DNA of 40,360 nucleotides, from NCBI GenBank assembly GCA_046582735.1, contig JAYGDV010000040.1:1-40360 (forward strand), given 5' to 3'. Under the pieces are notes generated by a model. The model saw only the letters and a program-made list of their open reading frames with translations, searched no databases and was not told where the DNA came from. Positions 19,306 through 40,360 of the stretch are shown here, one piece after another (the first letter of the stretch is position 1; the number at the start of each line of letters is the position of its first letter). This DNA comes from Planctomycetota bacterium. GTDB taxonomy: Bacteria > Planctomycetota > UBA8108. The position numbers and the translations under genes are program-made.

Positions 19306-22300
19306 ATGGCCAAGCTAACAGTTGAATCAGGTTCAGAACGGGGGAAGCAGTTCAAGCTCCCCGATTCCGGTACCTTTGCGATCGGCAGGGATGAGACGTG
19401 TGCCGTTTGCATCGACGATCTTATGGCTTCCCGGGTACATTGCGTGGTGCGCTGTGATTCGGGGAAATGGATTATCGAGGATCACAAAAGCACCAACGGC
19501 ATCAGGGTTAATGATGTTCCTGTTGACCGCCATACCCTTATACCGGGCGATACGATCGAAATCGGCGATACCCTCCTGGCGCTTTCTGCGACCGATGAGG
19601 ATCCGCTGATCGGCGCCACCCTGGCCGGTTACGACATTGAGAAACGGCTTGGCCGGGGGGCCATGGGTACGGTCTATCTCGCGCGACAGCTTTCCCTCGA
19701 CCGGCCGGTTGCCCTGAAGATTCTCGCCCCGAGGTTTTCCAAGGACGAAGATTTCATCCAGAGATTTCTGGAGGAGGCGCGTGCTGCCGGCCGTCTGAAC
19801 CATCCCAATGTCGTCCAGGTCTACGATGCGGGCCATGAAGGCGACTATCACTATATGTCGATGGAGTATCTCGAAGGCGGAAGTCTCGAGGAGCTCCTCG
19901 AGAAGGAAGAGCGTCTCGATGTAATTCGCGCGGTAGAGGCTGCCAGGGACGCAGCCCAGGCGCTCCAGTTCGCCCAGCAGAACCACATTGTCCATCGTGA
20001 CATTAAGCCTGCCAACCTGCTGCTGACCCTCGATGGAACTATCAAGGTTGGTGACCTGGGAATCGCAGCTGACCTTCGGCAGTATTCCGGCGGCGTAGAG
20101 GCTACCGGCAAGACCTCGCCGGCTGGCTCGCCGCGTTACATGGCTCCTGAACAGGCACGGGGTGAGTCCCTCGATCAGCGTGCTGATATCTATGGTCTCG
20201 GCGCGACGCTTTACAAGATGATTTCCGGGGTTGCTCCCTTTGATGGGTCGAGCGTTAAAGAGATCCTCAAGGCCAAGATGGATAACGACCCACAGCCTCT
20301 CAGGAAACTTATTCCTGAAGTGCCGGGAGGGCTTTCTTCGGTTGTCCAGAAGATGCTCGCACGGAACCCGGACAGCCGCTACGAGAATGCAGAGCAGGTT
20401 TATACAGCACTCGATCCTACCCAGTATCGAAAGAGCATTTCATCCAAGGGCAAGGCCCGGGTTGCCCGTTCCACCCCTGCCTCCCAGGGCTCCAGGGCTC
20501 CAGCCGCCCGCCGCGGGCCACGCAGGTCCCCCCAGAAATCCCAGTCGAACCTGGTTGTTGGAGCCGTACTTGGAATTGTGGCGCTGGTCTTCGGGCTCGT
20601 CCTGGTTACGAAGTTGATGGATAGCGGCAATGGAGACCGCAAGGTTTCCAGGCCGGACAGGAGTGAGGAAACAACCTCAAGACCGGTGGAACAACCGCAG
20701 CAGAGCGGGATCGAGAGAGACCCCTCCAAGATCGCGATCAATGAACGTGACAGAATATCAGGGGAATACTCCAAGGGGCAGATCGATGCGGCGACGGCTC
20801 TGCAGCGCCTGGATAATCTCCTGGGAAACAACCCCCGGATCGCACCCAGCTCTGAGAAATTGCGGAAGAAGCTGTTTGCGGCGGTGGAGATCGAGAAGAA
20901 GGAGAAGGAGAGAAAGCTGCAGATTGAGGCCAAGAGCGCCGTAGCTGCGATCGATCTCCTGATCGAAAAGAAAGAGCTCAAGAGCGCAACAGATTCCATC
21001 GCCGGGTTCCTGCAGAAGTATTCCGATTTCGGGCCGGATATGGTTTCCGCCCAGCGGCAGAAGCTCAGTGGCATTATCCGTTCGGTGGTGGCGGAATCGG
21101 CGAAGCGGGTCGCCCAGCTGGTCAAGAGCGCGGATTTTGAGAAAGCCCTTGCCGAGATCGCTGCTCTCAAGGGGAAGGTGCCGGGAAGTGAAGCGGCCCG
21201 GATCCAGTCCCTGGAGGCGGAGGTGAACCTGGTCAAGAACCGGATGGCGAACAGCCTGATATTCGTTCAGGAGAAGCGTTCCGGCATCTACAAGTTCCTG
21301 GCAGACCTTGATTTTTCCGAAGCCGAAAAACAGCTTGCCGACATCATCGGCAAGCTGGGTGGCATCGAGAAGGTCAACCAGGAAGCCAGGGATCTCCTTG
21401 GATTGATTGGTAATCATGTTTCATCAAGTAAGCTGGCCTGGGAGGAACTCCAGGTAATCTTTTCGGCAGCGGCAAAGTCCAAGGCAGCAGTGAAGCTCAA
21501 GTTTCTTCTTGCCACCGCGGATGACAAGGAGCTGCGTTACAAGGTGCTCGGGCTCGAAGGGCATGCGGTAAGAGTCCAGGAGTCCGGCTCCAAGGCACCG
21601 CCTCCGGTGGCCTATCGTGTCCTTGGACTCGATACCGGGATCGCCGTAAACCTCCTGGGAAAGCAGGGCCGCCAGGGGCTTGGGGAGGAAAAGATTTTAC
21701 AGGGAGTTGGCCTGCTGCTGTTGTTGCGGGATGGTCCGGGCCGCGCACGTGAGCTTCTCCTGGATGAAAAGATTCCCGCTGCCGGCAGGAAGGCCAATGA
21801 AGAGTTGCTTGCCAGCTACGGCAATAGCTGGAGAGAGGCACGCCTTTACGCTCTTCAGAAGCTTGAGAACAGCCTGGGAACAGCCAAGAGCTCTGTGCCG
21901 ATGGATATGTGGAATCTTATTGCCACCGATGCCGGTGTTCTGATCACTGCCTGGCGAAAAAGGCCTGACTACGCCAAGGTCCGCGATACCCTGCACGAAC
22001 TGTTTCTTCGTACCCGCATAGCAGCCCTGCAGGGCGCCTCGGTGGAGGGGGTTTTCAACGCCAAGACCGTTAAGGAAGGCCGTGACGGTCTCACCACCCT
22101 GCAGTACGATTTTTCCACGGTGGACCAACTGAAGGATTTTCTCCCGGCACGCAGGGGCAATTCGTCAATTGAATGGGTAGAGAAAAGGAAACTGCTCAAG
22201 CTCAAGGGCGAAGTGCGTTTTCTTGCTGCTAATCCTTTTGAATCACGGTTGTCAGTCACCGGCCTGGTGCCCACAGGTGGGTACAACTCCCAGGCACCGA

Positions 22301-23220
22301 ATATCAATGTGGCGCTCTGGACAGAGGAAGACGATGTAGTCTCCTCCGGGCTTGACGGAAGGACCCTTGATTACTCAGCCTGGCGCGACCGGAATGAAGA
22401 TGCAGAGCCGCCTGCTGATTTCTTTGTGGCAGGCATGGGCTACAAGGTTGAAGTCCGTCTTGGCGGTGGTCTTACAGGAGGGCGTCTCAGTGCACTGGCA
22501 AGAACCCTGACCAACTGGCTCCCTGTCTATCTGAAGGAATCTTCCCTGGCGCTCCTTTCGGTCGATCATGGAAGCTCTCTCCACAAACGTCGCGATGAAA
22601 AAATATGGGACCAGCCGGCCGGCAGCTTTTTTCGCTCCGGGGCAGTGCGGTTTGCAGTCTCGATGGATGGACGGGATTTAAAGTGGAAGCTCAACAACAA
22701 GACGATCAACTACAAGACCAGCCTGGCCGTTGGCCGCCTGGGAGACAGGATTCCGCACGCTGGTTCGTTCAGTCTCTTTACCAATAACTCGACGGTCTTT
22801 TTCCAGTCCCTGGAAATTGTTGGCCGGATTTCGAAGGAATGGGCTTCCGGTCTTGCGAAAAGTATTGCCGAGAGAGAGCTCAAAAAACTGGATCCTTCTC
22901 CGAGCAGCGGGTCAGGCGGGAGTGGGCAGGACGATAAAAAGCCGGGTTCGGGGAAACCGGCAGAAAAGAAGTCGGCGGACGCGGGTAAAGTTGGCGACCC
23001 CTCGTCCTCTCCTGCGGGGAGCGCTGAATTAAAAGGGCTGATGGGACAGTTTGACAAGAACGGCAATGGGACCCTGGATGCCGACGAACGAAAAGCCCTC
23101 CAGGATTTCCTGCGAGGGCGTTCTCAGGAAGATTCGGCCCCCAGCCCCAAGGGCGACCAACCGGATGGTTCGGGGAAGACTTCGCCTCCCGCAGCGGCAA
23201 AGAAAACTACTTCCGGATAA
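19306..23220 (+). CDS. FHA domain + Hanks-type Ser/Thr protein kinase + single TM + large extracytoplasmic helical and lectin-like region + C-terminal EF-hand loop
   Basis: FHA: FAIGRDETCAVCIDDLMASRVHCVV...STNGIRVN. Kinase: LGRGAMGTVYLA...VALKIL...HRDIKPANLL...DLGIA...GSPRYMAPE. TM: LVVGAVLGIVALVFGLVLVTKL. C-terminal beta domain ending ...NNSTVFFQSLEIVG. EF-hand loop DKNGNGTLDADE at 23053..23088. Confidence 0.85.
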   Translation: MAKLTVESGSERGKQFKLPDSGTFAIGRDETCAVCIDDLMASRVHCVVRCDSGKWIIEDHKSTNGIRVNDVPVDRHTLIPGDTIEIGDTLLALSATDEDPLIGATLAGYDIEKRLGRGAMGTVYLARQLSLDRPVALKILAPRFSKDEDFIQRFLEEARAAGRLNHPNVVQVYDAGHEGDYHYMSMEYLEGGSLEELLEKEERLDVIRAVEAARDAAQALQFAQQNHIVHRDIKPANLLLTLDGTIKVGDLGIAADLRQYSGGVEATGKTSPAGSPRYMAPEQARGESLDQRADIYGLGATLYKMISGVAPFDGSSVKEILKAKMDNDPQPLRKLIPEVPGGLSSVVQKMLARNPDSRYENAEQVYTALDPTQYRKSISSKGKARVARSTPASQGSRAPAARRGPRRSPQKSQSNLVVGAVLGIVALVFGLVLVTKLMDSGNGDRKVSRPDRSEETTSRPVEQPQQSGIERDPSKIAINERDRISGEYSKGQIDAATALQRLDNLLGNNPRIAPSSEKLRKKLFAAVEIEKKEKERKLQIEAKSAVAAIDLLIEKKELKSATDSIAGFLQKYSDFGPDMVSAQRQKLSGIIRSVVAESAKRVAQLVKSADFEKALAEIAALKGKVPGSEAARIQSLEAEVNLVKNRMANSLIFVQEKRSGIYKFLADLDFSEAEKQLADIIGKLGGIEKVNQEARDLLGLIGNHVSSSKLAWEELQVIFSAAAKSKAAVKLKFLLATADDKELRYKVLGLEGHAVRVQESGSKAPPPVAYRVLGLDTGIAVNLLGKQGRQGLGEEKILQGVGLLLLLRDGPGRARELLLDEKIPAAGRKANEELLASYGNSWREARLYALQKLENSLGTAKSSVPMDMWNLIATDAGVLITAWRKRPDYAKVRDTLHELFLRTRIAALQGASVEGVFNAKTVKEGRDGLTTLQYDFSTVDQLKDFLPARRGNSSIEWVEKRKLLKLKGEVRFLAANPFESRLSVTGLVPTGGYNSQAPNINVALWTEEDDVVSSGLDGRTLDYSAWRDRNEDAEPPADFFVAGMGYKVEVRLGGGLTGGRLSALARTLTNWLPVYLKESSLALLSVDHGSSLHKRRDEKIWDQPAGSFFRSGAVRFAVSMDGRDLKWKLNNKTINYKTSLAVGRLGDRIPHAGSFSLFTNNSTVFFQSLEIVGRISKEWASGLAKSIAERELKKLDPSPSSGSGGSGQDDKKPGSGKPAEKKSADAGKVGDPSSSPAGSAELKGLMGQFDKNGNGTLDADERKALQDFLRGRSQEDSAPSPKGDQPDGSGKTSPPAAAKKTTSG

Positions 23221-23244
23221 GGGTTTCCCCGAGGGGCCAATGGG

Positions 23245-26200
23245 ATGGTTGTAAATCAAAAGGGGCAGAGTTGCAGGCCCGGCCAGGCTACGGGTTCAGG
23301 GAGTTTTCTTTCGGTTCTGGCCTGGGCGGCGGTTTTTTCCCTGGTCACCGGATCGGCCTGGAGCGAGGTGTTATCGCTTCGTTGCGGAATAACAACGACC
23401 AGGGGAGTCCCGGCCGAGGGGCGCAGTCTTCCTGACCTGCCTTTCAACGTTGAGAGGGGTTATGGGTTTATTGGCGGGAAGGCTGGAGTACTTGAGACAG
23501 CTGCGGTTCGGGGGCTGCGTGCCGCGCCGCGGGTTTCCTGGCGGGCCGGGGAATCAAAATACGTCTTCAAGCTCAAACGGGGCGAATACCTCGTAACCCT
23601 GGACTTTATAGAAACCGAGGTCGCTGCTGCGGGGCTCCGGATTTTTGATGTAGAGGCAGAGGGCAAGGTAAGTATAGAGGGATTGGATATCTTTGATGAG
23701 GCTGGAGATTTCAGCCTTCTCCAGAGGTCCTTTCGGGTAGGGGTTTTTGATGGGTGGCTCGATCTGCAGCTTGTTGCTGTTACAGGGGACCGGGGGCCGC
23801 GTGTATCTGGAATCAGGATTGAGCCGTTTTCAGCGGCGGACTCTGCCGGACTCTCCCTGGGCAAGCCGGTTCTCAGCGGCCGTTCGGGTCTTTTTCGAAA
23901 CACCCTGGCCTGGAAGCCCCCGGTGGGGGAGGGTTGGGGTACGGCTCCTCTTGCAGGGTTCAATCTCTACAGAAGCAAGGTCGCTGGGGGGCCCTTTGCG
24001 CCTGTCAATGACCGCCTTCTGCGGGTTCCTTACCTGGTGGACCGGGACCTCGTTCCCGGGACCACCTATTACTACCGGGTACAGAGCCAGGATATAGCGG
24101 GCACCAGGAGCTCCGCTTCCGCAGCGGTTGCCCTGGAGGCGCTCTCGCATTCAAAGACAGATCCGAAGATTTACGATATCCGGATAAGCGATGCTGACTT
24201 CCGGCGCATGGCGACCCGGGAGGGATCGGCCGAGAGGGTCCCCGCGGAGGTTCTTTATATGAAAGGCCGCTTTCCGGCGGAGATTGGTTTTGATGTGCGG
24301 CCCGGGAGTTGGTTGCGACAGAAGAACCTGGTTGTCGATATGAGCAGGGACAGCTTCAGGGCTTTCCGCAAGAGAGATTTTCTCCTGCTCAGCGCAGAAG
24401 AGCCTGACTTTACCCGGATGCGGAGAACCCTCACGTCCATGGCAGCCGGGTCGGTCGGGCTCGCCGCCGGCCTTACTGAGCCGGTCATTGTCCTGGTCAA
24501 CGGCAGGTTTTTCGGCTTGCGCTATGATGTAGAAAGGATTGACAGCAAGTTCAGGAAGCGCACGCTGCTTGACAGGACCGGTCCCTTGAGCCGCCTTACC
24601 GGTGATGACCACTGGCGGGCGGACTGGAGTATGCGCGCCCGGAGGGTGGGCAAGAGTGGAGACCTGCTGTCAGTCAATGATCTTGTACGGCAGCTCAACC
24701 GCCTTCACCCGGGAGAGATTGAAAGTTTTTTCAGGAGCCGTTTTTACCTGGGGAAGCTGATCGACCGCCTGGCATTTTCAGCGGTAAGAGGCGAACTGGA
24801 CCCTGACCCCGAAGATCTTTTTTTACTGAAGGATTCGCGCAACGGCAAGTGGGAGATGTTCAGGCAGGATTACAGCGGTGGAGCCTGGGGGATCAGGGAT
24901 CTCGATACAGCGATTCGGGATCTCACACCGGGAGAACTGGAGCGGGCGCTGTTTCCCCTGTGTCAGCGCAGCGGGACGCCCCAGAGAAAGGCCTGGATGG
25001 TTCTCTTCACCCGTTTTTTCAATACTCCCGCTTTGCGTGAGCTCTATCTCCAGAGGGTGGAGTCAATGATCCGGGAGGAGCTCTCTGCAGAGCGGTTTGA
25101 TGCAATGGTGGACAGGGCGGCAGCCACCGCCGCTTCAGCCCTCGAACACAGCAGGCTGCTCTCCCCCGGTGTCCGGGTAGCTTCCCCCGGGGTCCTGGGG
25201 GATGAGATTAAGGCAGCTCACCGAAGGCGGACAACGGCCCTGAAGGTGCTCATTGATGCAGTCAGAGCGCGCCCCCGGGAACCCGTTATGATCTCTTCTT
25301 ATTTTCTCAACCCGGCCAGTGGTTCACTCTGGGTCGAGTTGCGCAATCGTTCAGATGCAGTGGTTAAGCTCGCGGATTTAAGGTTCTCCGGTGGCTTCAG
25401 TGATAACCCCCGCCTGGTTTCCAGGGTGGGAGACCTGGCCCCGGGAACGGCTTTCAGGCTGGAGCTGCCCCCGGGACCGCAAACCAGGAGCCTGGCAAGC
25501 GGCGGATCACTGGTGTTGTGGCGTCGCGTACCGCAGGCTGGGATCATCGTTTCCGATTTTGTTTTCTTTGGCCACCAAGGCAGGGGCGTCGTTCAGAAAA
25601 AAGTGCCCGCCGGTGAGGGCGACTGGGTTTTTGTTTCTGAAGGCGAAAAAAAGAGCGAATGCCCAAGTCCGTTTTATTCCCATGAAGTAGTCCGTCGCAA
25701 CAACGGTGACCTGCTGCTCTCCTTCAGGTTGAATAGTTTACCTGGAGGTTCCCGGGGGCAGAGGCCGGTGGTAGAGCTGATGTACCGGCCGGTGGGTGAT
25801 AAGGCCTATGAGGGTGTTCCCATGACCTGGGATGAGGAGCGGCATCGGTACCTGGTTACTCTTCAAAAGGACGAGAATCGACCGCGTACAGAATATTACT
25901 ACCGGGCGAGGGGAACGAACGGTCTTGAACGGGCTTACCCCCTGGGGGCTCCTGCGTTGACACTGGTGCTGCCTGTTCTTCCGAAGTTTTTCATCAACGA
26001 GGTCTGTCCCCGGCCCGGTGGAGCTCCCGGGGCACCGGGTGAGTTCATCGAGATTATCAACGAGTCCGACCGGGCTCTCTCTCTGAAAGGTCTCTATCTC
26101 TCCGACGACCGGGGAAGGAAAGCGAAGTGGTGTATCACCGATGACATCGTCGTCAAGCCGGGAGGCTACGAGGTTTTTTACGGGGATGGACTGAACCAGG

Positions 26201-26457
26201 GTCGGCATACGAGTTTCAAGTTGTCCAATTCAGGGGAGTTCGTAGGCCTCTATACGTCTCCTCACGAGGGGAGTCTCCTGGTCCACGGGTGCGCTTTCAG
26301 AGGCGTTCCCCTTGGGAACTCCTGGGGAAGAAAGCAGGATGGAAGCAGGTCATTCAGAGCCTGGAAGGATCCTACTCCCGGTAAGAGAAACCTGCCGAAA
26401 ATACCCGAGGGCTACCTCGAGAAGTTGCGCGCCAGGCAGAAGGCAAAGGACGATTGA
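23245..26457 (+). CDS. Secreted multidomain CotH-family (atypical kinase-like) protein: malectin-like + FN3 + CotH + two lamin-tail (LTD) domains
   Basis: GAGGGG lies 8 nt upstream. Signal peptide: FLSVLAWAAVFSLVTGSAWS. Malectin-like: YLVTLDFIETE...RIFDVEAEGK...LDIFDEAG...VSGIRIEP. FN3-like: LAWKPP...YYYRVQSQD. CotH-like: VIVLVNGRFFGLRYDVERIDSKF...NGKWEMFRQDYSGGAWG. LTD: FINEVCPRP...EFIEIINESDRALSLKGLYLSDD...FKLSNSGEFVGLY. Confidence 0.8.
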   Translation: MVVNQKGQSCRPGQATGSGSFLSVLAWAAVFSLVTGSAWSEVLSLRCGITTTRGVPAEGRSLPDLPFNVERGYGFIGGKAGVLETAAVRGLRAAPRVSWRAGESKYVFKLKRGEYLVTLDFIETEVAAAGLRIFDVEAEGKVSIEGLDIFDEAGDFSLLQRSFRVGVFDGWLDLQLVAVTGDRGPRVSGIRIEPFSAADSAGLSLGKPVLSGRSGLFRNTLAWKPPVGEGWGTAPLAGFNLYRSKVAGGPFAPVNDRLLRVPYLVDRDLVPGTTYYYRVQSQDIAGTRSSASAAVALEALSHSKTDPKIYDIRISDADFRRMATREGSAERVPAEVLYMKGRFPAEIGFDVRPGSWLRQKNLVVDMSRDSFRAFRKRDFLLLSAEEPDFTRMRRTLTSMAAGSVGLAAGLTEPVIVLVNGRFFGLRYDVERIDSKFRKRTLLDRTGPLSRLTGDDHWRADWSMRARRVGKSGDLLSVNDLVRQLNRLHPGEIESFFRSRFYLGKLIDRLAFSAVRGELDPDPEDLFLLKDSRNGKWEMFRQDYSGGAWGIRDLDTAIRDLTPGELERALFPLCQRSGTPQRKAWMVLFTRFFNTPALRELYLQRVESMIREELSAERFDAMVDRAAATAASALEHSRLLSPGVRVASPGVLGDEIKAAHRRRTTALKVLIDAVRARPREPVMISSYFLNPASGSLWVELRNRSDAVVKLADLRFSGGFSDNPRLVSRVGDLAPGTAFRLELPPGPQTRSLASGGSLVLWRRVPQAGIIVSDFVFFGHQGRGVVQKKVPAGEGDWVFVSEGEKKSECPSPFYSHEVVRRNNGDLLLSFRLNSLPGGSRGQRPVVELMYRPVGDKAYEGVPMTWDEERHRYLVTLQKDENRPRTEYYYRARGTNGLERAYPLGAPALTLVLPVLPKFFINEVCPRPGGAPGAPGEFIEIINESDRALSLKGLYLSDDRGRKAKWCITDDIVVKPGGYEVFYGDGLNQGRHTSFKLSNSGEFVGLYTSPHEGSLLVHGCAFRGVPLGNSWGRKQDGSRSFRAWKDPTPGKRNLPKIPEGYLEKLRARQKAKDD

Positions 26458-30382: not shown

Positions 30383-30411
30383 TTTACAAGCCCCCTGAGA
30401 ACGATTAGAAT
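30383..30411 (+). promoter_or_regulatory. Strong sigma70-like promoter candidate for the amidohydrolase-module array
   Basis: TTTACA (30383..30388), an exact 17-nt spacer, then TAGAAT (30406..30411). It lies in the largest and AT-richest intergenic region of the window (30201..30593). Confidence 0.45.
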
Positions 30412-30593
30412 GATCCGTTAACGAGTATCGAGGAGTCTTTTATTGGTGGGCTCACCAGGGCCTTCACCTTTATTTGCCTGAATAAGCCGTGACCTATTTC
30501 TTCAGCGCTTTTAGCAGCGTGGACTTATTTCTACGTACACGATTGCGCAAAAACACAATACTGCAGGGAGAGTGTCCCATTGAGGGGAGAGGC

Positions 30594-33500
30594 TTGCAGC
30601 CTTTCTCCCTTCGCCGGATTTTATTCCTCGCTGCCTGCTGCCTGCTGCCGGCTGTTTTGGCCGCGGCGGATCTCGCCATCACCTCGGCGACGGTACATGT
30701 GGGCAATGGAGAGGTGATCCAGGATGGTACCGTGTTGGTTTCGGGGGGGCAGATCACTGCAGTCGGCGGCAAAGGTGACGTGGAAATACCTCCAGGTGTG
30801 CAGCGGATCGATGCGAAAGGGCTTCACCTCATCCCGGGGATGATCGACCTGCGCAGCCTTGAACTGGTACCGGAATCCACCGCGCCCTTCGGTGTTAATT
30901 CCCGAATAGCGGTTATCGATGGACTCGATTTCTTTGAAAGGTGGGGGCCTGTCCGTGATGAAGGCGTGACGACTGTTGCCGTCAGCGGTGCGGGTGGAAG
31001 CACCCAGAGCAGTCTTGGCGCTATTCTCAAGCTTCGAAGAAGCGTGGCCGGGCTGGGATCGCTGGAGAGTATGCTGCTGAAGCGGGAGTCCCATATCGTT
31101 CTTTCGCTCGGTATTGCCGGTACCACCTCGACCAGCGCCCACCGTCTCGAACAGTATTACGCACTCCGCCGGCAGATGGTTGCGGCACTTAAATACACTG
31201 AGGCCTGGGAGAAATACTGGAAGGAAGTAGAGAAGTACAACAAGGCGGCCGAGAAATTTAACTCCGGTTTGAAGGCTCCCGGGGCTGCAGGGGAAAAGAA
31301 AAAAGAAGAGAACAAGGACGCCGGAGCGCCCGCGGCGGAGGAAAAGAAGGACCCGAAAGATCCGGCAAAGAAACCAGCCCCCGCAAAGACTGCTCCCAAG
31401 CCGCCCAAGGTCACCAAGCCGCCCAATCCGCCCAAGGTCCCCAAGCCGCCCAAGGTGCCCAAGCGGCCCAAGGTCGATCTGGCCATCGAGGCAATGAGCC
31501 GGGCTTTGAAGGGTGAACTCACCGTGTTCATAGAAGCTCATCGCGCCGACGATGTCCGCTATGCCTTGCGTCTTCATGAGGAGTTCAAGTTTGATTTTAC
31601 TCTCCTGGGAGCCGGACGTGCCGGTCCTGTTGTTAAAGAGCTTGCCTCCTCCGGAATCACTGTTGCGCTGGGGCCTGTTCTGAACACCTCTCATGATCTG
31701 CGCCAGGACACCAGGACGGAACTGCTGGCCGGTGTTTATGGAAAAGCCGGTATTCCCCTGGTGATCAGCTCCGGTGCGGCATCAACTGAGGGCAGCCGCT
31801 ACCTGCGCATGCAGGCCTGTGCGGCAGTACGTGGAGGTCTTGACCCTGAAAAGGCTCTCGAGGCACTTACCCTGCAGCCGGCGAAGAGGCTGGGGTTGGA
31901 AAAGGAAACGGGCTCCATCGAGAAGGGAAAAGCCGCTGACTTGGTTCTGCTGAATGGTCCACCACTGGATATCCGAAGCAGGGTTGTCTCGGTCTTTGTC
32001 GAGGGAGTAGCCGGCGCGGATGCGCCGGTGGCAGCCGGGCAGGTTATCCGCGGCCCGGAGGCAGGATTGAGCTTTGCCCCGGTCGAGGAAAAAGCCGCCG
32101 CGAAGCCCTCTGCCGGCTGCGTTCTCAGGAATGCGCTGGTGATGCGGATTGCTCCCGCTGGAATGGAGGTGATCAGCAAGGCTACGGTTGTCATTCGGAA
32201 CGGAAAAATCGACAAGGTAACTACCGGCCCCGTCAAGGTGGAGGCCGGGTTTGCCGTTTACGATCTCGCCGGACGCTGCCTGCTGCCAGGGTTTATCGAC
32301 GCCCACTCGCATCTCACCCTGAAGGGAGATGTGGACGACCTCGCAGTCGCCTTGAATGATGACCTGCGTGTCATGGACAGCTTTGACCCCTGGGATCGTG
32401 AGATCGGAGTCTTTCTCAGCCGCGGTGTGACCACGGTTGCGCTGAGCCCGGGCAGAAACAACGTGGTCGGCGGCGAGATCAGCATGATCAAGCTCCTGCC
32501 AGGCGGCGTTCCACTCCGCGTTCTGAAGAGAAAAGCGGCTGCAAAGGTATCCCTGGTTCCTAACCTGACCCTGCCGCGATACCCGACCTCGCTCAGTGGT
32601 GCTGCCGATGCATTTGCGCAATGGCTGAAAAACCGCTACGCGGTTGAATCAAAGGGGCTTCGCGTTCCTGTGGTTGCTTATTTCGAAAATATTACGCAGG
32701 TTGAGAGGTCCTTAGCCCTGGCGCGAACCCACAAGGTGGCGATCACTTTTCTCGAAGGAGTCGGGACCGATGGGCGGACATTCGGCAGGCTCCCCGGCGG
32801 CTCCCGGGTGATTCTTGGCCCCTATTCCATAGAGGAGCCTGAGCGGGTTCTTCGAGCTCCGGCGATTCTCGAAGAGAACGGAGTTCCTTTTTCATGGGCG
32901 ACAAGCGGCACCTTGATTGACCCCCTGAGCTCAGCCACGCTGGCCATGGTGTACGGGTTGAGCGAGGCCGGAGCGCTGCGCTCCCTGACTACGCATCCGG
33001 CAGCCCTCTACGGAGTCGATTCCCGGATTGGGAGACTCGAGAAAGGCGCCGATGCAGACCTCGTGGTCTGGGACGGCAACCCGCTGAGCCTGACCGCAGC
33101 GGTTAACATGGTATTTATCGATGGGAAGATCGTCTTCAAGGATGGTGCGAAGGTCGAATCACCGGTCAAGGTGGCCCGGACAGAAGCGGTCCGAGGTGGG
33201 ACGCCCTTACCGGCCATGGTCACAGCAGGCGCCGAGCCCGTTGTGCTGGAGCCGGCTGTTGAGTCAACCATTCTTATCCGGGCCAGGAAGGTCTACACGG
33301 TTTCAGGCGAACCTCTCGAACCCGGGCAGGTCCTGATCCGCTCCGGCAGAATTGTCCAGCTGGGCAAGAGGATAGATATTGATAAGACCACCCCCGGACT
33401 GATGGTCATTGATGTTCCCGGTTCACTTTGTCCCGGCCTGATCGACGGAGGATCCGGGATGGGGATTGACGGGCGTCGTGCCGATGAGTTCAGAGAGATG

Positions 33501-34511
33501 ACACCCGTCCTGCCAGTCCTTCTCGGGGCTGATCTCGACGCTATTGAACGCCGCAGAGCCCTGCAGAGCGGCGTGACGGCGGCCGCGATCACCCCTGGTG
33601 ACCGGAATGTAATCGGTGGTCTCGCAGCTGTAATCAAGACGCATGGAGACAATCTCTCCGAGGCAGTTCTGAACGGAGCATCTTCTCTCTCCATGTGCCT
33701 GACTCAAATGGCGAGCTCCGGCAACAGGACCCTGCGGTCCGGCCGTCCGAGCACCTACCTGTACCGGATTCCCACAACCAGGATGGGAACCGTCTTCCTC
33801 GCTCGCAGAGCGCTGCTTGAATCTGTCCCCGGTGGCTGGGATAGCAGCCACGCAGTGGGGGATCTGAAAGATATGCTGACGACTTCCGAGCGGCGGGTCG
33901 TTCGCGAGGTCCTCGCCGGCAAGAGAACCCTCAGGATCAGGGCCCAGGCCCGCTACGAGATCTTGACGGCGCTGAGGATCGCGGGCGAATTCGGCCTCCA
34001 GGTCCAGATCGAGGGCGGCAGGGAGGCGATTCACCTGGTCAGCCTCCTGAAGGAAAAGAAGGCCTCCGTGTTCCTGGCTGCAAATGAAAGATGGTCCGGT
34101 CGCGAGCTGGAGGCGAACCTGAACTTGAGTGCCCGGCTTCCTGCCGAGCTCCACAAGGCAGGAGTTCCTTTCGCTTTTTATTCGGACTCCGCCTCTGCTG
34201 TTGCGGGATTGCGCGACAGGGTCACCTGGTGTGTTCGCCGGGGCCTTCCAGAATCGGCGGCACTCGAGGCACTCACCCTGGGGGCGGCGCGTATGCTCGG
34301 AGTGAGCAATCGGATCGGCAGTATTGAACCCGGGAAAGACGCCGATCTTGTTGCCTTCGGAGGTTCTCCCTTCGATACCAGGTCGGCAGTGCTCTGGGTC
34401 ATGGTTGACGGCAAGCTTGTTGCGGACCCGTTCCAGGGAGAGAAGCCGGTGGAGCGTCCCCGTGCAAAGATCAATAAACGAAGATCACTGGTCCCCCAGG
34501 GGGACTTCTGA
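30594..34511 (+). CDS. Exported three-module amidohydrolase-fold fusion protein (modules A1-A3); Pro/Lys-rich repeat inserted in module 1
   Basis: The longest ORF starts at GTG 30489. An in-frame TTG at 30594, preceded by GAGGGGAGAGG, gives the signal peptide (M)QPFSLRRILFLAACCLLPAVLAAAD. The unit [beta-sandwich ...G.I..VG...IDA.G..L.PG.ID...] ... [G.T....PG..N..GG....K] ... [G(S/R)(I/L)E.GK.ADLV...G.P] occurs three times. Only module 2 has the HxH motif (FIDAHSH). Confidence 0.8.
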   Translation: MQPFSLRRILFLAACCLLPAVLAAADLAITSATVHVGNGEVIQDGTVLVSGGQITAVGGKGDVEIPPGVQRIDAKGLHLIPGMIDLRSLELVPESTAPFGVNSRIAVIDGLDFFERWGPVRDEGVTTVAVSGAGGSTQSSLGAILKLRRSVAGLGSLESMLLKRESHIVLSLGIAGTTSTSAHRLEQYYALRRQMVAALKYTEAWEKYWKEVEKYNKAAEKFNSGLKAPGAAGEKKKEENKDAGAPAAEEKKDPKDPAKKPAPAKTAPKPPKVTKPPNPPKVPKPPKVPKRPKVDLAIEAMSRALKGELTVFIEAHRADDVRYALRLHEEFKFDFTLLGAGRAGPVVKELASSGITVALGPVLNTSHDLRQDTRTELLAGVYGKAGIPLVISSGAASTEGSRYLRMQACAAVRGGLDPEKALEALTLQPAKRLGLEKETGSIEKGKAADLVLLNGPPLDIRSRVVSVFVEGVAGADAPVAAGQVIRGPEAGLSFAPVEEKAAAKPSAGCVLRNALVMRIAPAGMEVISKATVVIRNGKIDKVTTGPVKVEAGFAVYDLAGRCLLPGFIDAHSHLTLKGDVDDLAVALNDDLRVMDSFDPWDREIGVFLSRGVTTVALSPGRNNVVGGEISMIKLLPGGVPLRVLKRKAAAKVSLVPNLTLPRYPTSLSGAADAFAQWLKNRYAVESKGLRVPVVAYFENITQVERSLALARTHKVAITFLEGVGTDGRTFGRLPGGSRVILGPYSIEEPERVLRAPAILEENGVPFSWATSGTLIDPLSSATLAMVYGLSEAGALRSLTTHPAALYGVDSRIGRLEKGADADLVVWDGNPLSLTAAVNMVFIDGKIVFKDGAKVESPVKVARTEAVRGGTPLPAMVTAGAEPVVLEPAVESTILIRARKVYTVSGEPLEPGQVLIRSGRIVQLGKRIDIDKTTPGLMVIDVPGSLCPGLIDGGSGMGIDGRRADEFREMTPVLPVLLGADLDAIERRRALQSGVTAAAITPGDRNVIGGLAAVIKTHGDNLSEAVLNGASSLSMCLTQMASSGNRTLRSGRPSTYLYRIPTTRMGTVFLARRALLESVPGGWDSSHAVGDLKDMLTTSERRVVREVLAGKRTLRIRAQARYEILTALRIAGEFGLQVQIEGGREAIHLVSLLKEKKASVFLAANERWSGRELEANLNLSARLPAELHKAGVPFAFYSDSASAVAGLRDRVTWCVRRGLPESAALEALTLGAARMLGVSNRIGSIEPGKDADLVAFGGSPFDTRSAVLWVMVDGKLVADPFQGEKPVERPRAKINKRRSLVPQGDF
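31395..31474 (+). repeat. In-frame 9-nt periodic Pro-Lys repeat (PKPPKV-type)
   Basis: Reads APKPPKVTKPPNPPKVPKPPKVPKRPKV. The DNA consists of CCGCCCAAG / GTSCCCAAG units. Confidence 0.85.
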
Positions 34512-34532
34512 AACAGGACTACAGGATAAGAT

Positions 34533-35864
34533 ATGAATTCCATTACCCCGATCTTGATTCTAACCGCCAGCCTTGCCGTGGCATCCGACGAGGTTGTCGT
34601 GCTTAAGGTCGGCCGGGCGATCACCGCCGCCGGCAAGGATATTGAAAAAGCCACCATCGTCCTGGAGGGAGGGCGCATCAAGTCCATCGGGACCGATGCC
34701 GAGACTCCCCGTACAGCCCGGGTTGTAGAAATGCCCCGGGCGGTGGCGATGCCGGGAATAGTCGATGTTCACAGCGTCAACGGGCTGAGGGTGTCCAACG
34801 AGCGCCTGGCGAATGTGCCCTATGTAACGGTGCTCGACGGAATAGACCCGTCATCTCCGGGACTGGAGAATGCGCGCCGCCATGGGGTTACGACTGTTCA
34901 TTGTATCCCCGGAAATGTAACCCGGTTTGGTGGGCAGGGAGCAGTGATCCGCACCAGCGGCAGGACCGTTGATGAGCTTGTCGTGAAATCTCCTTCGGCC
35001 ATGAAAATGTCTCTCCAGCCTGCTGCCGGTGAGAACCGGATGGGGAACATCGCCGCCCTCAGGAAGAGCTTTTATGATTTTTACACCCGGATGAAGGCTC
35101 TGCAGGACCCCGGTGGTAAAGCTCCGCTGGTGAAGAAAAAGAAGCTTTCGCTCACCGACCTGGTGAAGTCCCGTCCGAACTGGGATGAGATCGACTGGAA
35201 GAAGATTCCCGATGACAAGGTCTCGGAGCGGGAGAAGCCCATGCGTGACCTGGTACAGGGCAAGCTCAGGGCCTTTATCAACTGTCCGACTGCTTCGGAT
35301 GTATTCAAGGCGTTCGAGCTGATCGACACCCACCACCTGGACGCGACGCTTGTTCTCGGCCCGGATGCCTGGAAGCTCGGTAAGGTCCTGGCCGCGCGCA
35401 AGAACCTGGGACCGGTGGTTCTCAATCCCCTGCTCGAGGTCTGGGAGCGTGATCCCGGCACCGGCGGGGAAAAGCGCCAGCTCACTCCTGTGCTGCTGCA
35501 CAAGGCCGGCATCTCCTTCGCCTTACAGGTAGTGACCGACTCCAGTTTCAATTCGGGCCCTTCTTTCGGGCGCAGCGGACCCTATCACCACTGGTACCAG
35601 GCCGCCCGGCTGGTTCAATACGGTCTGCCCCGGGCTGAGGCAATCGAGACGATTACGATCACACCCGCGAAGATCCTCGGCCTTGACCATCGGATTGGTT
35701 CGCTGGAGGCCGGCAAGGATGCGAACATCGCCATCTTCTCAGGTGATCCGCTTGATGCCCGGAGCTGGGTTGAGAGAGTCTTCATCGAGGGCCGCGAGGT
35801 TTATAACCGCAGCAAGGACCGTGACCTCGAGCTGTTGTTGAAGGATCCGGAGAGGTCGTTCTGA
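34533..35864 (+). CDS. Exported single-module amidohydrolase-fold protein (module B), HxH half-degenerate
   Basis: Starts 21 nt after the previous stop. Signal peptide: MNSITPILILTASLAVAS. Reads PGIVDVHSVNG (second His replaced by Val), GVTTVHCIPGNVTRFGGQGAVIRT, and GSLEAGKDANIAIFSGDPLD. Confidence 0.8.
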   Translation: MNSITPILILTASLAVASDEVVVLKVGRAITAAGKDIEKATIVLEGGRIKSIGTDAETPRTARVVEMPRAVAMPGIVDVHSVNGLRVSNERLANVPYVTVLDGIDPSSPGLENARRHGVTTVHCIPGNVTRFGGQGAVIRTSGRTVDELVVKSPSAMKMSLQPAAGENRMGNIAALRKSFYDFYTRMKALQDPGGKAPLVKKKKLSLTDLVKSRPNWDEIDWKKIPDDKVSEREKPMRDLVQGKLRAFINCPTASDVFKAFELIDTHHLDATLVLGPDAWKLGKVLAARKNLGPVVLNPLLEVWERDPGTGGEKRQLTPVLLHKAGISFALQVVTDSSFNSGPSFGRSGPYHHWYQAARLVQYGLPRAEAIETITITPAKILGLDHRIGSLEAGKDANIAIFSGDPLDARSWVERVFIEGREVYNRSKDRDLELLLKDPERSF

Positions 35865-35883
35865 GGCGTTTGCCCAGGCCGTC

Positions 35884-38418
35884 ATGAACAGAAGAACAGA
35901 CATGCACCTTCCACGAAAAATAACTGCACGGAGTTCAGCCGCGTGCTCCCGGATGGCCGGGTGGATTGCCGTTGCGTTAGCGGCACTGCTGCCGGCCTGG
36001 CTCGAGGGCAGTGAAGAGACCGCCAGCCGCAGCTTTGCCATGCGCGGAGCCACCATCCACACGATCTCAGGCGATATCCAGGAGAATACGAACCTGGTCG
36101 TCAAGGATGGGAAGATCGTCGCCCTGGGTCAGAAGGTAGTGATTCCCAAGGGCCTGAAGGTTTACGACCTGAAGGGATATGTGGTTATTCCCGGTCTTCT
36201 CGACGCAGAGACCACGCTGGCCAGTGGCAATCGAGACACCCTCGAGAGCGTGTCACCCCATGTCCGGGCCCTCGATGGCTGGGATTATTTCCGCGACAAT
36301 AGGGATCTTCTCAAGGGTGGGGTTACCGCTGTTTATCTCTCCCCGGGAATTGCAGCTTCCAGGACGCGGACGCGGCTTGTTTCGGGCCAGGGTGCTGTCG
36401 TCAAGACTGCCGCCTCCAATGGGGATCCGCTCAGAAGGATCGTTTCTTCTTCGAGCGGGCTGCAGGTAACGCTTGGTGATCTGTCAAAAATCCAGCCCTC
36501 GGTTTATGTTCCCCCGGTGGGCGCTTCACCTGACAACCCCTTCGAGGTGCTCCTGCCGCCTCTTCCCCAGTCCCGCTCGGGAGAGTTCCTGGCCCTGCGC
36601 CAGGTGATCTCCAGGGCCCGGCTTTACAGTGATTCGCTTGCGAAGCACATCAAGGGAAGAGCTGCTGCTCCGGGCTTCGACAGGATCTCCTCTGCCTTCC
36701 ATCCAGTGGTGGCCGGCAGCGACCACCTCCGTGTACGTGCCAACAAGGCCCGGGATATCTATCACATTCTCGAGCTTGCCCGCGAGGCTGGCATCAAGAT
36801 CGTTATCGAGGGTGGGGCTGAGGCTGAACGCCTGACTCCGTGGCTCGTCAAGATGAAGGTCCCGGTGATCTTTCCGGGGGCTTTCCAGCCAGGGAGGCTG
36901 CCCGGCGGAGACCTGCAGAGCCCTGCCATCGAGGGGCGACTGCGTGAGGAATCGATTCTCCGCATGCATCGGGCAGGGGTCAGGGTGATCCTCAACAGCC
37001 CCAGCGATGGAGAGGTGAAGGATCTTCTCCTGCAGGCGGCTGCAGCGGTTCGTCTCGGGATGAAGCCAGCAGAAGCATTGCGGACCATCTCCCTCAATCC
37101 TGCAGAGGTCCTGGGGGTCGCTGACCGTATCGGAAGCATAGCTCCGGGGCGGGATGCGGACCTGGTGGTTCTGGGTGGAGATCCACTTGGCTCTGACAAC
37201 CAGGTCCAGGCAGTCTTTATAGATGGAGAGCTCGTTTTCAATCCTGCTCCTGCGGTGACGTCTGATTGCACGGTTATCCGCGCCGGGCGCCTGGTAACAG
37301 GGAGTGGAACCGAGTATTCCCAGGGTGTCGTTATCGTCAGGAAAGGGAAGATCGAATATGCCGGGCCGGGGCTTGCCCTCGTCTCCGGTGTAAAGGGTGC
37401 GAAGGTAATAGACGCCTCCAGCCAGACGGTGATTCCCGGGTTGATTGATGCGGGTGGAATGGCTGGAACACGGGCAGAGGCGCTGGTTCCCGGGTTTGGA
37501 GCCGGCCAGGGCAGCTCCGGTGCGGGAAAAACGGCTGATTTCCGTCTTGCCGATTCCATCGATCCGCGCGACCCCTCGCTGATGGAACTCGTTCGGGCCG
37601 GGATCACCACGGTATTGATTACCCCGCCGAGCGCCGGCCAGGTCTCGGCCTTGAAGCTCGCCGCCGCTGATCCTGCCAAGGCGCTTATCAGGCCGTATGC
37701 GGCGCAGTATTTCACCAAGTCATCCAGCAAGACGCTCAAGAGTGCCAAGGCCTACCATGACAGCTGGATCCAGTTTGATAAAAAGAAAGAAGCCGCTGCG
37801 GCGGCAGGCAAGGAGTTCAAGGACAAGCCTCCCACGGTGCAGGATGCTTACGAGCCCTACCGGGCCCTGTTCAAGGGAGAGGTCCCGGCCCTGGTCGAGG
37901 TCCCCAATGCTGCCTCCGTGGCAGCCGTGGTGGCTCTCTACAAGGACCAGTACGGGATTCGTGTTCTCTGCAGTGGGTTCTCAGGCCTGCGACAGGATGA
38001 GAACCTCGCAGGGCTGGCCGGTCTCCTTCTTTCGAAGACCGGCGGCATCATCCTGCAGAACCCGCTGATCGTGAAGCAGGATAACCAGCAGGTAAACTGG
38101 CCGCGGAAGTTGAGCGGGCTTGGAGTCATGCTCTCGCTGCGGTCCCGTGTAGCTGGAGGCGCCAGGTTGTTGCCCCTGCAGGTTTCCTACGCGGTTCGAG
38201 AAGGGTGGAACTCCCGCCTTGCTCTGCGGTCGATGACCTCGATTCCGGCTGAACAATTCGGTATTTCCGACCGGGTCGGCACCATCGAGAAGGGCAAGGA
38301 TGCAGACCTGGTTATTCTTTCGGGAGAACCTTTCTCCGTTGCAGCCAGCGTCATGGCCGTCATGGTCGATGGGAAGCTGGTGCACACAGTCGAGCAATTT
38401 GATGGAGAGGTTGAATAG
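35884..38418 (+). CDS. Exported two-module amidohydrolase-fold fusion protein (modules C1, C2), both lacking HxH
   Basis: Starts 19 nt after the previous stop, with a hydrophobic N-terminus (MAGWIAVALAALLPAWLEG). C1 reads PGLLDAETT ... GSIAPGRDADLVVLGGDPL. C2 reads PGLIDAGGM ... GTIEKGKDADLVILSGEPF. The exact start is uncertain (ATG 35884, 35902 or 35953). Confidence 0.8.
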   Translation: MNRRTDMHLPRKITARSSAACSRMAGWIAVALAALLPAWLEGSEETASRSFAMRGATIHTISGDIQENTNLVVKDGKIVALGQKVVIPKGLKVYDLKGYVVIPGLLDAETTLASGNRDTLESVSPHVRALDGWDYFRDNRDLLKGGVTAVYLSPGIAASRTRTRLVSGQGAVVKTAASNGDPLRRIVSSSSGLQVTLGDLSKIQPSVYVPPVGASPDNPFEVLLPPLPQSRSGEFLALRQVISRARLYSDSLAKHIKGRAAAPGFDRISSAFHPVVAGSDHLRVRANKARDIYHILELAREAGIKIVIEGGAEAERLTPWLVKMKVPVIFPGAFQPGRLPGGDLQSPAIEGRLREESILRMHRAGVRVILNSPSDGEVKDLLLQAAAAVRLGMKPAEALRTISLNPAEVLGVADRIGSIAPGRDADLVVLGGDPLGSDNQVQAVFIDGELVFNPAPAVTSDCTVIRAGRLVTGSGTEYSQGVVIVRKGKIEYAGPGLALVSGVKGAKVIDASSQTVIPGLIDAGGMAGTRAEALVPGFGAGQGSSGAGKTADFRLADSIDPRDPSLMELVRAGITTVLITPPSAGQVSALKLAAADPAKALIRPYAAQYFTKSSSKTLKSAKAYHDSWIQFDKKKEAAAAAGKEFKDKPPTVQDAYEPYRALFKGEVPALVEVPNAASVAAVVALYKDQYGIRVLCSGFSGLRQDENLAGLAGLLLSKTGGIILQNPLIVKQDNQQVNWPRKLSGLGVMLSLRSRVAGGARLLPLQVSYAVREGWNSRLALRSMTSIPAEQFGISDRVGTIEKGKDADLVILSGEPFSVAASVMAVMVDGKLVHTVEQFDGEVE

Positions 38419-38420
38419 GG

Positions 38421-39671
38421 ATGAATCGAACCTGCAAGACCTGTATTTTCCTGTTCCTGTTGAGCCTCTACGCTTTGCCGGTTCGTTGCGGCGATCCTGC
38501 AGTTGGGCGGAAATGGGCCATCCGCGGAGGAAAGGTCGTTACCATTACAAAGGGTAACCTCGAGGGGGCGGTCGTGCTTGTATCCGGCAGCCGGATCGAG
38601 AAGATCATCCCCCGCCCCGCTGCAGACTGGAAACCCCCGGCTGGTTACAAGCTCATCGATGCAGGTGAGCGTTGGGTTGTTCCGGGCTTCATCGAGCTGC
38701 ACTCCCATATCGCTGGCGGTGATCTCAACGACATGGTCTACCCGGTGAATCCCGGTTTCAGGACATTGGACAACGTGATTCCCCGCAATGCCCTTCTCAA
38801 GAGGGCGCAGGCCGGCGGCGTGACGACGGCCCTGTTCATTCCCGGAAGCGGCACCAATATGGGTGGCTTCGGAACCCTGATTAAAACGGCAGGCAAAGAT
38901 CTCGATGAAATGCTCATCCGCTTTCCCGGGGCGCTCAAGATTGCCCAAGGTGGAAATCCCGAGCGCAGGGGCGGCGATATTGGCTACTCCAGGATTGGTA
39001 TGAACTGGCTGATCCGCAATGCCCTGAAGGAAGGCCAGGCCTACACCCGGGCATGGGATGCATGGGAGGCGGACAAGACGAAGAAGAAGCCGGTGAAGAA
39101 CCCCCGCCTGGAAATGTTCCGGGGGCTGTTCCACAAGGAATATCCCGTCGTGGTTCATACCCAGGGCTATCACCTGATCCAGTCAACGATCCGTATCCTG
39201 CACGATGAGATGAAACTCTGGGTGGTCATTGACCACGGAACCTTTGACGGTTTCGAGCTGGCACCCGAGGTCGCCAGCCGGGGGATCCAGGTAATGAATG
39301 GCCCGCGTGAGTTTCGCTGGGATACCCGCCTGGGCGGCTTCCGGGGATTGGCCTATGAATGGTATCGCGGTGGAATCAAGACGATCGGCGTCAACACCGA
39401 CTCCCCGGTGGTTCCTGCCGAGGAGCTGATCTACCAGGCATCGATGGCGGTGAGGCTGGGGCTGAAAGAAGACGTTGCGCTTGCCGGTATTACTCTTCAT
39501 GCCGCCCGCGCCCTTGGAATGGAGAAGAGACTGGGCAGCCTGGAGGCCGGCAAGGATGCGGATATCGTCATCTGGACAGGTGATCCGCTCGATCCGCGCC
39601 AGTCTGTGGTGCTGACGATGGTTAACGGAAAGATAGCTTACGACACCAGCAAGGAGCCCCAGAGGTTCTGA
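38421..39671 (+). CDS. Exported amidohydrolase (module D), the only module with an apparently complete metal-ligand set
   Basis: Starts 2 nt after the previous stop, with GGAGAGG upstream. Signal peptide: MNRTCKTCIFLFLLSLYALPVRC. Ligand motifs: PGFIELHSH (HxH), GALKIAQG (Lys), VVVHTQG (His), VIDHGTF (His), GVNTDSP (Asp). The C-terminus reads GSLEAGKDADIVIWTGDPLD. Confidence 0.85.
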   Translation: MNRTCKTCIFLFLLSLYALPVRCGDPAVGRKWAIRGGKVVTITKGNLEGAVVLVSGSRIEKIIPRPAADWKPPAGYKLIDAGERWVVPGFIELHSHIAGGDLNDMVYPVNPGFRTLDNVIPRNALLKRAQAGGVTTALFIPGSGTNMGGFGTLIKTAGKDLDEMLIRFPGALKIAQGGNPERRGGDIGYSRIGMNWLIRNALKEGQAYTRAWDAWEADKTKKKPVKNPRLEMFRGLFHKEYPVVVHTQGYHLIQSTIRILHDEMKLWVVIDHGTFDGFELAPEVASRGIQVMNGPREFRWDTRLGGFRGLAYEWYRGGIKTIGVNTDSPVVPAEELIYQASMAVRLGLKEDVALAGITLHAARALGMEKRLGSLEAGKDADIVIWTGDPLDPRQSVVLTMVNGKIAYDTSKEPQRF

Positions 39672-39689
39672 GCCTGCTGGAGATTTAGA

Positions 39690-40360
39690 ATGAAAACACG
39701 CACTGAACATACCACCGGAAAAGACCGCCGCCGGCTGCGGCTTCGCCTGCTGGTGCTGGCATTGCTGCTGGCACTGGGCCCGGCTCTTGCCGCGGACGAG
39801 GACCTGGTTGCTTACAAGGCTGCCCGGATCGTCAGCAAGGCAGGCCAGAGCGTTTCCCCCGGTTTCCTTCTTGTTCGCAGCGGGAAGGTCGAAAAAGTCC
39901 TGGGCGCAGACGCGAAGCTTCCTGACGGAGCCAGGGTGGTTGATCTCAAGGAAGCGGTCATATTGCCCGGCCTGGTCAATCCGCTCAGTGCCATCAGCCA
40001 GGCCAATTACAGGTCAGGTCCCGGCAGGGCCTCGCAATCCAACTCTTCCCCCAGCGATGGCAGGAAGCTGCTCGGGTCCTCGGGTGTGAACCTGAAGCAC
40101 GAGATCTACCGCCGCCTGGGAAGGACCGGGTATACGACATTCGCAGTCGTTCCGAATGACACCAGGGGGTTGATCGCCGGGCAGGCCTCCGTGATCCGCC
40201 CGGCCCTTGGAAACGAGAAAGAGGCCAAGGAGCTTGTGCTGGCGGAGTCGGCCTACCTCATGCTGGGCTTTGCCTCCGGAAAGGTCTGGTATGACGCCGG
40301 TATCAAGTACCTGAAAAAAGCCGTCGATGGCATCCTGAAGCAGAAGGCCGACAAGAAGAA
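39690..40360 (+). CDS. Exported amidohydrolase-fold protein (module E), 3' end outside the window; HxH absent
   Basis: This ORF is not in the supplied track because it has no stop in the window. ATG 39690 lies 18 nt after the previous stop. My manual translation is open to base 40360: MKTRTEHTTGKDRRRLRLRLLVLALLLALGPALAADEDLVAYKAARIVSKAGQSVSPGFLLVRSGKVEKVLGADAKLPDGARVVDLKEAVILPGLVNPLSAIS...GYTTFAVVPNDTRGLIAGQASVIRP... It has the same module grammar as the four upstream genes. Confidence 0.75.
   Translation, partial: MKTRTEHTTGKDRRRLRLRLLVLALLLALGPALAADEDLVAYKAARIVSKAGQSVSPGFLLVRSGKVEKVLGADAKLPDGARVVDLKEAVILPGLVNPLSAISQANYRSGPGRASQSNSSPSDGRKLLGSSGVNLKHEIYRRLGRTGYTTFAVVPNDTRGLIAGQASVIRPALGNEKEAKELVLAESAYLMLGFASGKVWYDAGIKYLKKAVDGILKQKADKK

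Follow-up and report, generated by a model that had tools for sequence, protein, structure and literature searches.

A planctomycete array of nine amidohydrolase-like positions, one of which keeps the canonical metal site

The final 10 kb of the window analyzed here, a 40,360-nucleotide stretch from a member of the Planctomycetota (assembly GCA_046582735.1, contig JAYGDV010000040.1), carries five co-directional plus-strand open reading frames (ORFs), g1 to g5, which the ORF listing and translation place between position 30489 and the window end and which encode eight amidohydrolase-like modules. The window does not hold eight enzymes: only g4 has the canonical set of metal ligands and the other seven modules (array positions 1-6 and 8) lack it, a point missed by the first-pass annotation of this DNA. 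Relatives reveal nine positions in all, with g4 as the seventh, and we infer, with somewhat more confidence than doubt, that the array encodes a periplasmic hetero-oligomer built from one catalytic subunit type (position 7) and eight pseudoenzyme paralogs.

The canonical amidohydrolase site consists of an HxH motif after strand 1, a carboxylated Lys on strand 4, a His on each of strands 5 and 6, and an Asp on strand 8. The corresponding residues of g4 (H94, H96, K173, H246, H272 and D327) do not vary among the 13 orthologues aligned. When the ligand columns were read out across 11 array genomes, position 7 gave HHKHHD in all 11 and the full set was absent from the other eight positions in every lineage; the later columns of this read-out are less surely aligned in the most diverged modules, and the HxH column, which lies beside the conserved PGxxD, is reliable. 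An alignment-free check of the His residues likewise finds HxH in the window only in g4 and in the second module of g1. Some of the vacated sites have acquired conserved replacements: position 1 has Glu/Glu for the two later His, position 8 has Arg for the second His, and position 4, the second most conserved position, keeps its first His and its Lys invariant and has Tyr for the third His in 10 of 11 lineages, its other ligands being gone. Position 2, which retains part of the site in the window, is degenerate in other lineages. Additional copies of position 7, where they occur, also read HHKHHD, except for one copy in locus L033 (HHKHHL) and for fragments at frame breaks or contig ends, which are incomplete. 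The ratio of nonsynonymous to synonymous substitution rates (dN/dS), estimated between the window and two relatives, is 0.05-0.2 for every module, which indicates functional proteins and not decaying copies.

The suspicion that the array runs past the window end proved correct: in relatives a single additional gene follows, for a total of six genes and nine modules. The closest of them, at 88-96% identity, come from marine metagenomes (including TARA) and one metagenome-assembled genome (MAG) at NCBI (e.g., P0002 and P0004), and their modules are arranged 3+1+2+1+1+1, flanked by a minus-strand transketolase gene on one side and a gene for an unrelated FG-GAP protein on the other. Their last array gene, position 9, encodes 434-437 amino acids; the window is without the end of g5 and all of this sixth gene. 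In a marine relative at greater distance (64% identity at g4) the arrangement is 1+1+1+1+2+1+1+1, and Tautonia sociabilis (Isosphaeraceae) has 2+1+1+2+1+1+1. All-against-all comparison of the modules of 11 genomes returned as best match mostly the module at the same position in the other genome, with matrices dominated by the diagonal (counts out of 132 per position are in Table 1); by sequence, each of the nine modules forms an orthologous group of its own.

We then scanned one genome per species and kept the 80 top-scoring loci from at least 567 matches, so that the distribution figures describe a sample. Together with nine earlier loci (L001-L009) this gave 31 non-redundant loci with at least five modules, 22 of which span both array ends and nine of which end at a contig boundary. 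Position-specific hidden Markov models (HMMs) assigned every one of the 31 loci the order 1-2-3-4-5-6-7(n)-8-9 without rearrangement, and no position has been lost from any of the 22 loci that span both ends. Position 7 is the sole position with a variable copy number (one to four), and all extra modules in arrays of 10-12 are copies of it. Fusions join positions 5 and 6 in 31 of 31 loci, positions 1 and 2 in 5 of 25, and positions 2 and 3 in 2 of 25 (the clade of the window); no other adjacent pair, nor any non-adjacent pair, is fused in the surveyed array loci, and frame disruptions are confined to a few MAG loci. Thirty of the 31 array loci are labelled Planctomycetota (Gemmataceae, Pirellulaceae, Planctomycetaceae, Isosphaeraceae and Phycisphaerae). 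The other, a MAG labelled Armatimonadetes (L038, PEVN01000523.1), carries a complete nine-position array, reflecting either horizontal transfer or an error of binning or labelling.

Outside these arrays, the remaining survey loci share 31-38% identity with g4, belong to Actinomycetes, Clostridia, Chloroflexi, archaea and others, and contain one module, occasionally two or three. One Planctomycetota MAG (L031, JADJLZ010000006.1) has a single position-7-like gene (42% identity) with no array within 21 kb, indicating that stand-alone copies occur inside the phylum too. No flanking gene conserved across the phylum was found, accessory genes included, which suggests that the array is a self-contained unit; its neighbors are shared within clades, as with the transketolase gene upstream and the FG-GAP protein downstream in the marine clade. 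A conserved ORF of ~380-400 amino acids lies directly downstream of position 9 in the clade that has three to four position-7 copies (L027-L030, L032, L033 and L036).

The modular reading of the locus and its assignment to the amidohydrolase fold both held up well. An HMM built from single-module proteins finds 3+1+2+1+1 modules in the window, in agreement with the 3+1+2+1+(at least 1) layout first described, and matches the partial g5 with an E-value of 6e-55. Among the shared motifs that had been listed, PG[FLIM][IVL][DEN] occurs eight times with the same 3+1+2+1+1 distribution, but GVTT...P...GG...K, searched as a regular expression with variable gaps, is found in only three of the eight modules, a looser fit than first claimed; the C-terminal signature G[STR][IL][EA].G[KRA][DA]A[DN][LI][VA]....G.P occurs seven times, and an eighth copy would fall past the window. 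Pfam and a Foldseek search with an AlphaFold2 model of g3 agree on the fold, a (beta/alpha)8 barrel combined with a composite beta-sandwich domain. Scores to Amidohydro_1/Amidohydro_3 (PF01979/PF07969; gathering cut-offs 25/29.7 bits) are 146.7/136.8 bits for g1, 44.8/42.9 for g2, 108.3/89.0 for g3 and 57.6/63.8 for g4, and the partial g5 has no Pfam match and only weak N-terminal NCBIfam matches. Residues 35-403 of g4 align with residues 10-382 of PDB entry 3OOQ over the full length, helical insert included (E-value 7e-45). The same entry is the closest match to the model of the two-module g3, with a template-modelling (TM) score of 0.86 and an E-value of 1.6e-32, and TM scores to characterized amidohydrolases (Sgx9260b, Cc2672 and IadA) are ~0.6. 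This model, made from a 45-sequence alignment, has a mean predicted local distance difference test (pLDDT) value of 85.7 and a predicted TM (pTM) score of 0.79, and the latter is consistent with positions 5 and 6 meeting at a defined interface. Pairwise identity among the window modules is 21-31% over their full length, and the duplications are therefore ancient.

None of these searches yields an enzyme name. For the NCBIfam equivalogs, among them prolidase, HutI and PhnM, every score falls far short of its cut-off: NF051886 (Xaa-Pro dipeptidase/Cc2672-type carboxypeptidase) gives 149 bits for g1 and 57, 110 and 59 for the others against a cut-off of 500, and TIGR01224 (imidazolonepropionase HutI) reaches 109 bits against 298. 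No specific enzyme name is thus assignable, and the label "imidazolonepropionase-like" used in databases is purely generic. Domain, structure and literature searches likewise returned no match to a characterized pathway, as the first-pass annotation had anticipated, and a search of the literature found no description of this array.

Export is predicted from the N-termini. A signal-peptide-like start had been noted on each of the five window genes, and a simple heuristic concurs, with Kyte-Doolittle maxima over 12 residues of 2.3-2.8. The stand-alone genes of all positions in the 11 genomes also show, by this heuristic, a hydrophobic N-terminal core after a short, often basic segment; in three cases, L022 and L034 at position 9 and L017 at position 1, its 50-residue search window did not extend far enough. 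Modules inside a fusion protein have no such core. Single-gene homologues outside the phylum begin directly at the beta-sandwich and have no signal peptide, so that export appears to be a derived feature of the array, whose products we therefore predict to be exported. Arg-Arg pairs of the kind associated with twin-arginine translocation (Tat) are present in many n-regions, inconsistently. We also considered whether g4 might be a lipoprotein and rejected the idea because the Cys near its predicted cleavage site is unconserved and there is no lipobox.

The layout of the genes suggests joint expression. The intergenic gaps are 21, 19, 2 and 18 nucleotides, exactly as first reported, leaving little space for internal promoters or terminators, and no terminator-like site was found between array genes. 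The "one good promoter-like element" claimed for the locus is indeed present upstream and is kept in relatives, unchanged in L004 and as TTTACA...TAAAAT in L001, but promoter-like matches across the 10-kb region are at chance level (2 observed versus 2.4 expected). From the short gaps, the single conserved promoter-like site upstream and the terminator-free intergenic gaps, the array genes are probably co-transcribed. TTG 30594 is the probable start of g1: the start called in L004, a 96%-identical relative, falls at the same aligned codon, and the protein then has a typical signal-like N-terminal segment (QPFSLRRILFLAACCLLPAVLAAADL). L004 and L001 closely preserve the DNA sequence of the ~180 nucleotides before it, which may represent a regulatory 5' leader or, should translation begin at GTG 30489, an N-terminal extension of g1; Rfam gave no match across the whole window at the gathering threshold and none in the leader at E<=1. 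The start of g3 may be an internal ATG (M24), as called in L004, in which case the preceding gap would be 88 nucleotides.

What the ancestor of such an array might have looked like is suggested by 3OOQ, a structural-genomics entry for an uncharacterized Thermotoga maritima amidohydrolase with 10 chains. A preprint cites this structure as an example of dihedral symmetry (bioRxiv 10.64898/2026.08.06.736029). Taken with the 10 chains, the symmetry given in the preprint apparently makes 3OOQ a D5 homodecamer, and would mean that the ancestral type already forms a large oligomer. In common with g4, the 3OOQ type has the K/E-rich helical insert and all the ligands (HxH, K, H, H and D). It differs in being a single gene (in Clostridia, Actinomycetes, Chloroflexi and archaea) whose product has no signal peptide and apparently forms a homo-oligomer, whereas the array consists of nine diverged paralogs, predicted to be exported, of which eight are without the metal site. 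The neighbors of single-gene homologues outside the phylum, namely tsaE/tsaB-like ORFs (identified by reading), regulators and ABC-transporter-like ORFs, gave no hint of a substrate.

The best characterized matches are the COG1228-type peptidases and amidases, which resemble the array proteins in superfamily and domain layout: the Arg/Lys carboxypeptidase Cc2672 (3MTW), the prolidase Sgx9260b (3FEQ/3N2C), the isoaspartyl dipeptidase IadA and ochratoxin amidohydrolase (8IHQ). Their similarity is weak and partial, as seen in the NF051886 and TM scores above, and each is a homo-oligomer whose subunits are all active and come from a single gene. Hetero-oligomers that combine catalytic and dead paralogs are familiar from the beta ring of the eukaryotic 20S proteasome, CCT/TRiC, CRMP heterotetramers and Pseudomonas ATCase/PyrC'. 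The logic in these cases is that a homo-oligomeric ancestor duplicates, its paralogs become fixed in place, and a subset keeps catalysis; CRMP (dihydropyrimidinase-like) and PyrC' (dihydroorotase-like) show that a pseudoenzyme of the amidohydrolase fold can be a structural subunit. To our knowledge, none of these systems is bacterial, exported and composed of 9-12 paralogs in one colinear array. Hetero-oligomers of CRMPs are described in PMC4051505.

We suspect that the array, which in this sample is restricted to Planctomycetota apart from the one MAG labelled Armatimonadetes, goes back to a cytoplasmic homo-oligomeric amidohydrolase of the 3OOQ type that duplicated repeatedly. All nine products would have gained signal peptides and be exported, and only position 7 (g4) would still be a binuclear-metal hydrolase. 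Its chemistry is most likely hydrolysis of an amide or peptide C-N bond, by analogy with its nearest characterized relatives. The other eight positions have lost the metal site and yet stay single-copy, in fixed order and under purifying selection. We propose that they fill the places held by identical subunits in the ancestral homo-oligomer, where they may act as scaffold, substrate-binding or gating subunits for the catalytic one. Nine paralogs that are neither lost nor shuffled in the loci that span both array ends, fusion between neighbors only, a single catalytic position and purifying selection are the hallmarks of a transition from homo- to hetero-oligomer. The earlier proposal that the genes encode subunits of one extracytoplasmic assembly accordingly has strong indirect support in the fixed order, the one-to-one orthology, the lineage-variable fusions of neighbors and the single-gene outgroups. 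The data show the fold, the paralogy, the orthology by position, the ligand losses, the selection, the fusions and the taxonomic restriction, whereas export, co-transcription, physical assembly, the roles of the dead subunits and the class of substrate are what we infer. One speculative geometry, less likely than not, is a pseudo-symmetric particle derived from a D5 homodecamer, in which eight pseudoenzymes and two position-7 subunits would occupy ten places as five dimers. These could be 1-2, 3-4, 5-6, 7-7' and 8-9, so that gene order would mirror assembly, and the catalytic pair would consist of one gene product used twice or, in some lineages, of products of the two to four position-7 paralogs.

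Several observations weigh against a hetero-oligomer. Nine positions map poorly onto a decamer, conserved gene order is explicable by co-regulation alone, and the presence of one to four copies of the catalytic position fits diversifying independent enzymes equally well as exchangeable subunits. The AlphaFold2 model of g1 modules 2-3 (13-sequence alignment, pLDDT 53, pTM 0.41) is of low confidence and uninformative. Each stand-alone gene has its own predicted signal peptide, which means that subunits would have to meet after export. A first rival explanation is a set of co-regulated but independent periplasmic proteins, one enzyme and eight non-catalytic paralogs that act separately, for example by binding or sequestering related substrates or as structural proteins of the envelope, with no single complex. 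In addition to the separate predicted signal peptides and a catalytic gene whose copy number varies independently of the other positions, this explanation draws on the pocket residues specific to positions 4 (H/K/Y), 1 (Glu-Glu) and 8 (Arg), the retention of which suggests ligand binding over pure scaffolding. We nevertheless think it less probable, since binding proteins that act alone would be expected to show gain, loss and shuffling. Instead, the order is constant, no position is missing from the 22 loci that span both ends, fusions involve neighbors only and differ by lineage, and the ancestral type is apparently a large homo-oligomer.

Alternatively, all or most modules may be enzymes that use metal-independent chemistry or alternative ligands in a multi-step or multi-substrate extracytoplasmic degradation. 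Some members of the amidohydrolase superfamily, such as LigI, are metal-independent, so that lost ligands are no proof of lost catalysis, a further point against regarding eight of the positions as dead. The strong purifying selection on every module, the conservation within a position of replacements at former ligand sites, and the HSH and Lys retained by window position 2 can all be read in this way. At most dead positions, however, the six former ligand columns vary between lineages, unlike those of the catalytic site, window position 6 has only two His, and no transporter, regulator or pathway enzyme is conserved beside the array; we consider this alternative improbable. Tandem paralogs with degenerate active sites could also reflect an amplification that is recent and specific to one lineage, its copies decaying and without collective function, and we regard this reading as effectively refuted by the low identity among the paralogs (21-31%), by same-position orthologues across the classes Planctomycetia and Phycisphaerae, and by dN/dS values far under 1 with frame breaks in only a few MAG loci.

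If a hetero-oligomer with a single catalytic position is indeed what the array encodes, it would exemplify in bacteria, where such cases are rare, the conversion of a homo-oligomeric enzyme into a fixed hetero-oligomer of many, mostly pseudoenzyme, paralogs, a route well documented in eukaryotic machines and poorly sampled in bacteria. A D5-derived particle, should it exist, would be a bacterial counterpart of the diversification seen in the proteasome and CCT, and among the most paralog-rich bacterial hetero-oligomers known. The array is in any case a conserved signature of the Planctomycetota for which databases say only "amidohydrolase family protein" or "imidazolonepropionase-like"; these names would mislead metabolic reconstruction, given that the chemistry they imply is very probably not catalyzed by eight of the nine "enzymes". 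For the orphan 3OOQ family, the array offers a setting in which a function may be found, one that is testable in cultured planctomycetes.

Table 1. Features of the array in the window, with same-position best hits among the modules of 11 genomes
Feature	Coordinates	Strand	Same-position best hits	Remarks
Sigma-70-like promoter candidate	30383-30411	+		TTTACA-17 nt-TAGAAT; 10/12 matches; putative function
Leader between promoter candidate and probable g1 start	30412-30593	+		from alignment with L004 and L001
g1	30489 or 30594-34511	+		1340 aa from GTG 30489; 1305 aa from TTG 30594
g1 module 1 = position 1	30594-32048	+	82/132	signal-like N-terminus; pseudoenzyme, without HxH, K, H, H, D
g1 module 2 = position 2	32049-33188	+	57/132	HSH and Lys kept; two later His and Asp absent
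g1 module 3 = position 3	33189-34511	+	105/132	pseudoenzyme; 4 His in total, no HxH
g2 = position 4	34533-35864	+	110/132	443 aa; pseudoenzyme, conserved non-canonical pocket
g3	35884-38418	+		844 aa
g3 module 1 = position 5	35884-37257	+	105/132	pseudoenzyme
g3 module 2 = position 6	37258-38418	+	86/132	pseudoenzyme; 2 His in module
g4 = position 7	38421-39671	+	122/132	416 aa; sole window module with complete metal-ligand set; ends ...PQRF
g5 = position 8	39690 to past 40360 (39690-40360 in window)	+	64/132	223 aa, partial, window end inside gene; pseudoenzyme; 465-469 aa in relatives
Position 9			132/132	

In the window the transketolase gene adjoins the array upstream in divergent orientation. 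Elsewhere the window contains unrelated genes, including one for a chromate transporter and, at 19306-26457, genes for an FHA-domain Ser/Thr protein kinase (1304 amino acids) and a CotH-kinase/lamin-tail (LTD)/malectin protein (1070 amino acids) that have no evident tie to the array. Hits of ~880 amino acids that had appeared to be relatives of g1 modules 1-2 were set aside, as most classify to a separate and widespread Planctomycetota family of two-module amidohydrolases (P0258-P0335) with the C-terminal motif G-C-C-[LM]-G-x-W, the first module of which retains the metal ligands in the alignment consensus.

Two features of the array proteins deserve brief mention. The helical insert of position 1 includes a K/P/E-rich low-complexity stretch (…KKKEENKDAGAPAAEEKKDPKDPAKKPAPAKTAPKPPKVTKPPNPPKVPKPPKVPKRPKV…) at ~31251-31463, and position 9 proteins have a similar K/E/P-rich linker after the predicted signal peptide. 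At the other end of the proteins, position 7 terminates in R-R-F or Q-R-F in 8 of 11 lineages (L004, L007, L008, L011, L014, L017, L026 and L034; 39660-39671 in g4) and in RVF in a ninth, L022. R415 and F416 of g4 are invariant in the position-7 alignment (A1), g2 ends in ERSF and g1 in QGDF, and the R-R-F/Q-R-F tail could be a tail-docking or sorting signal.

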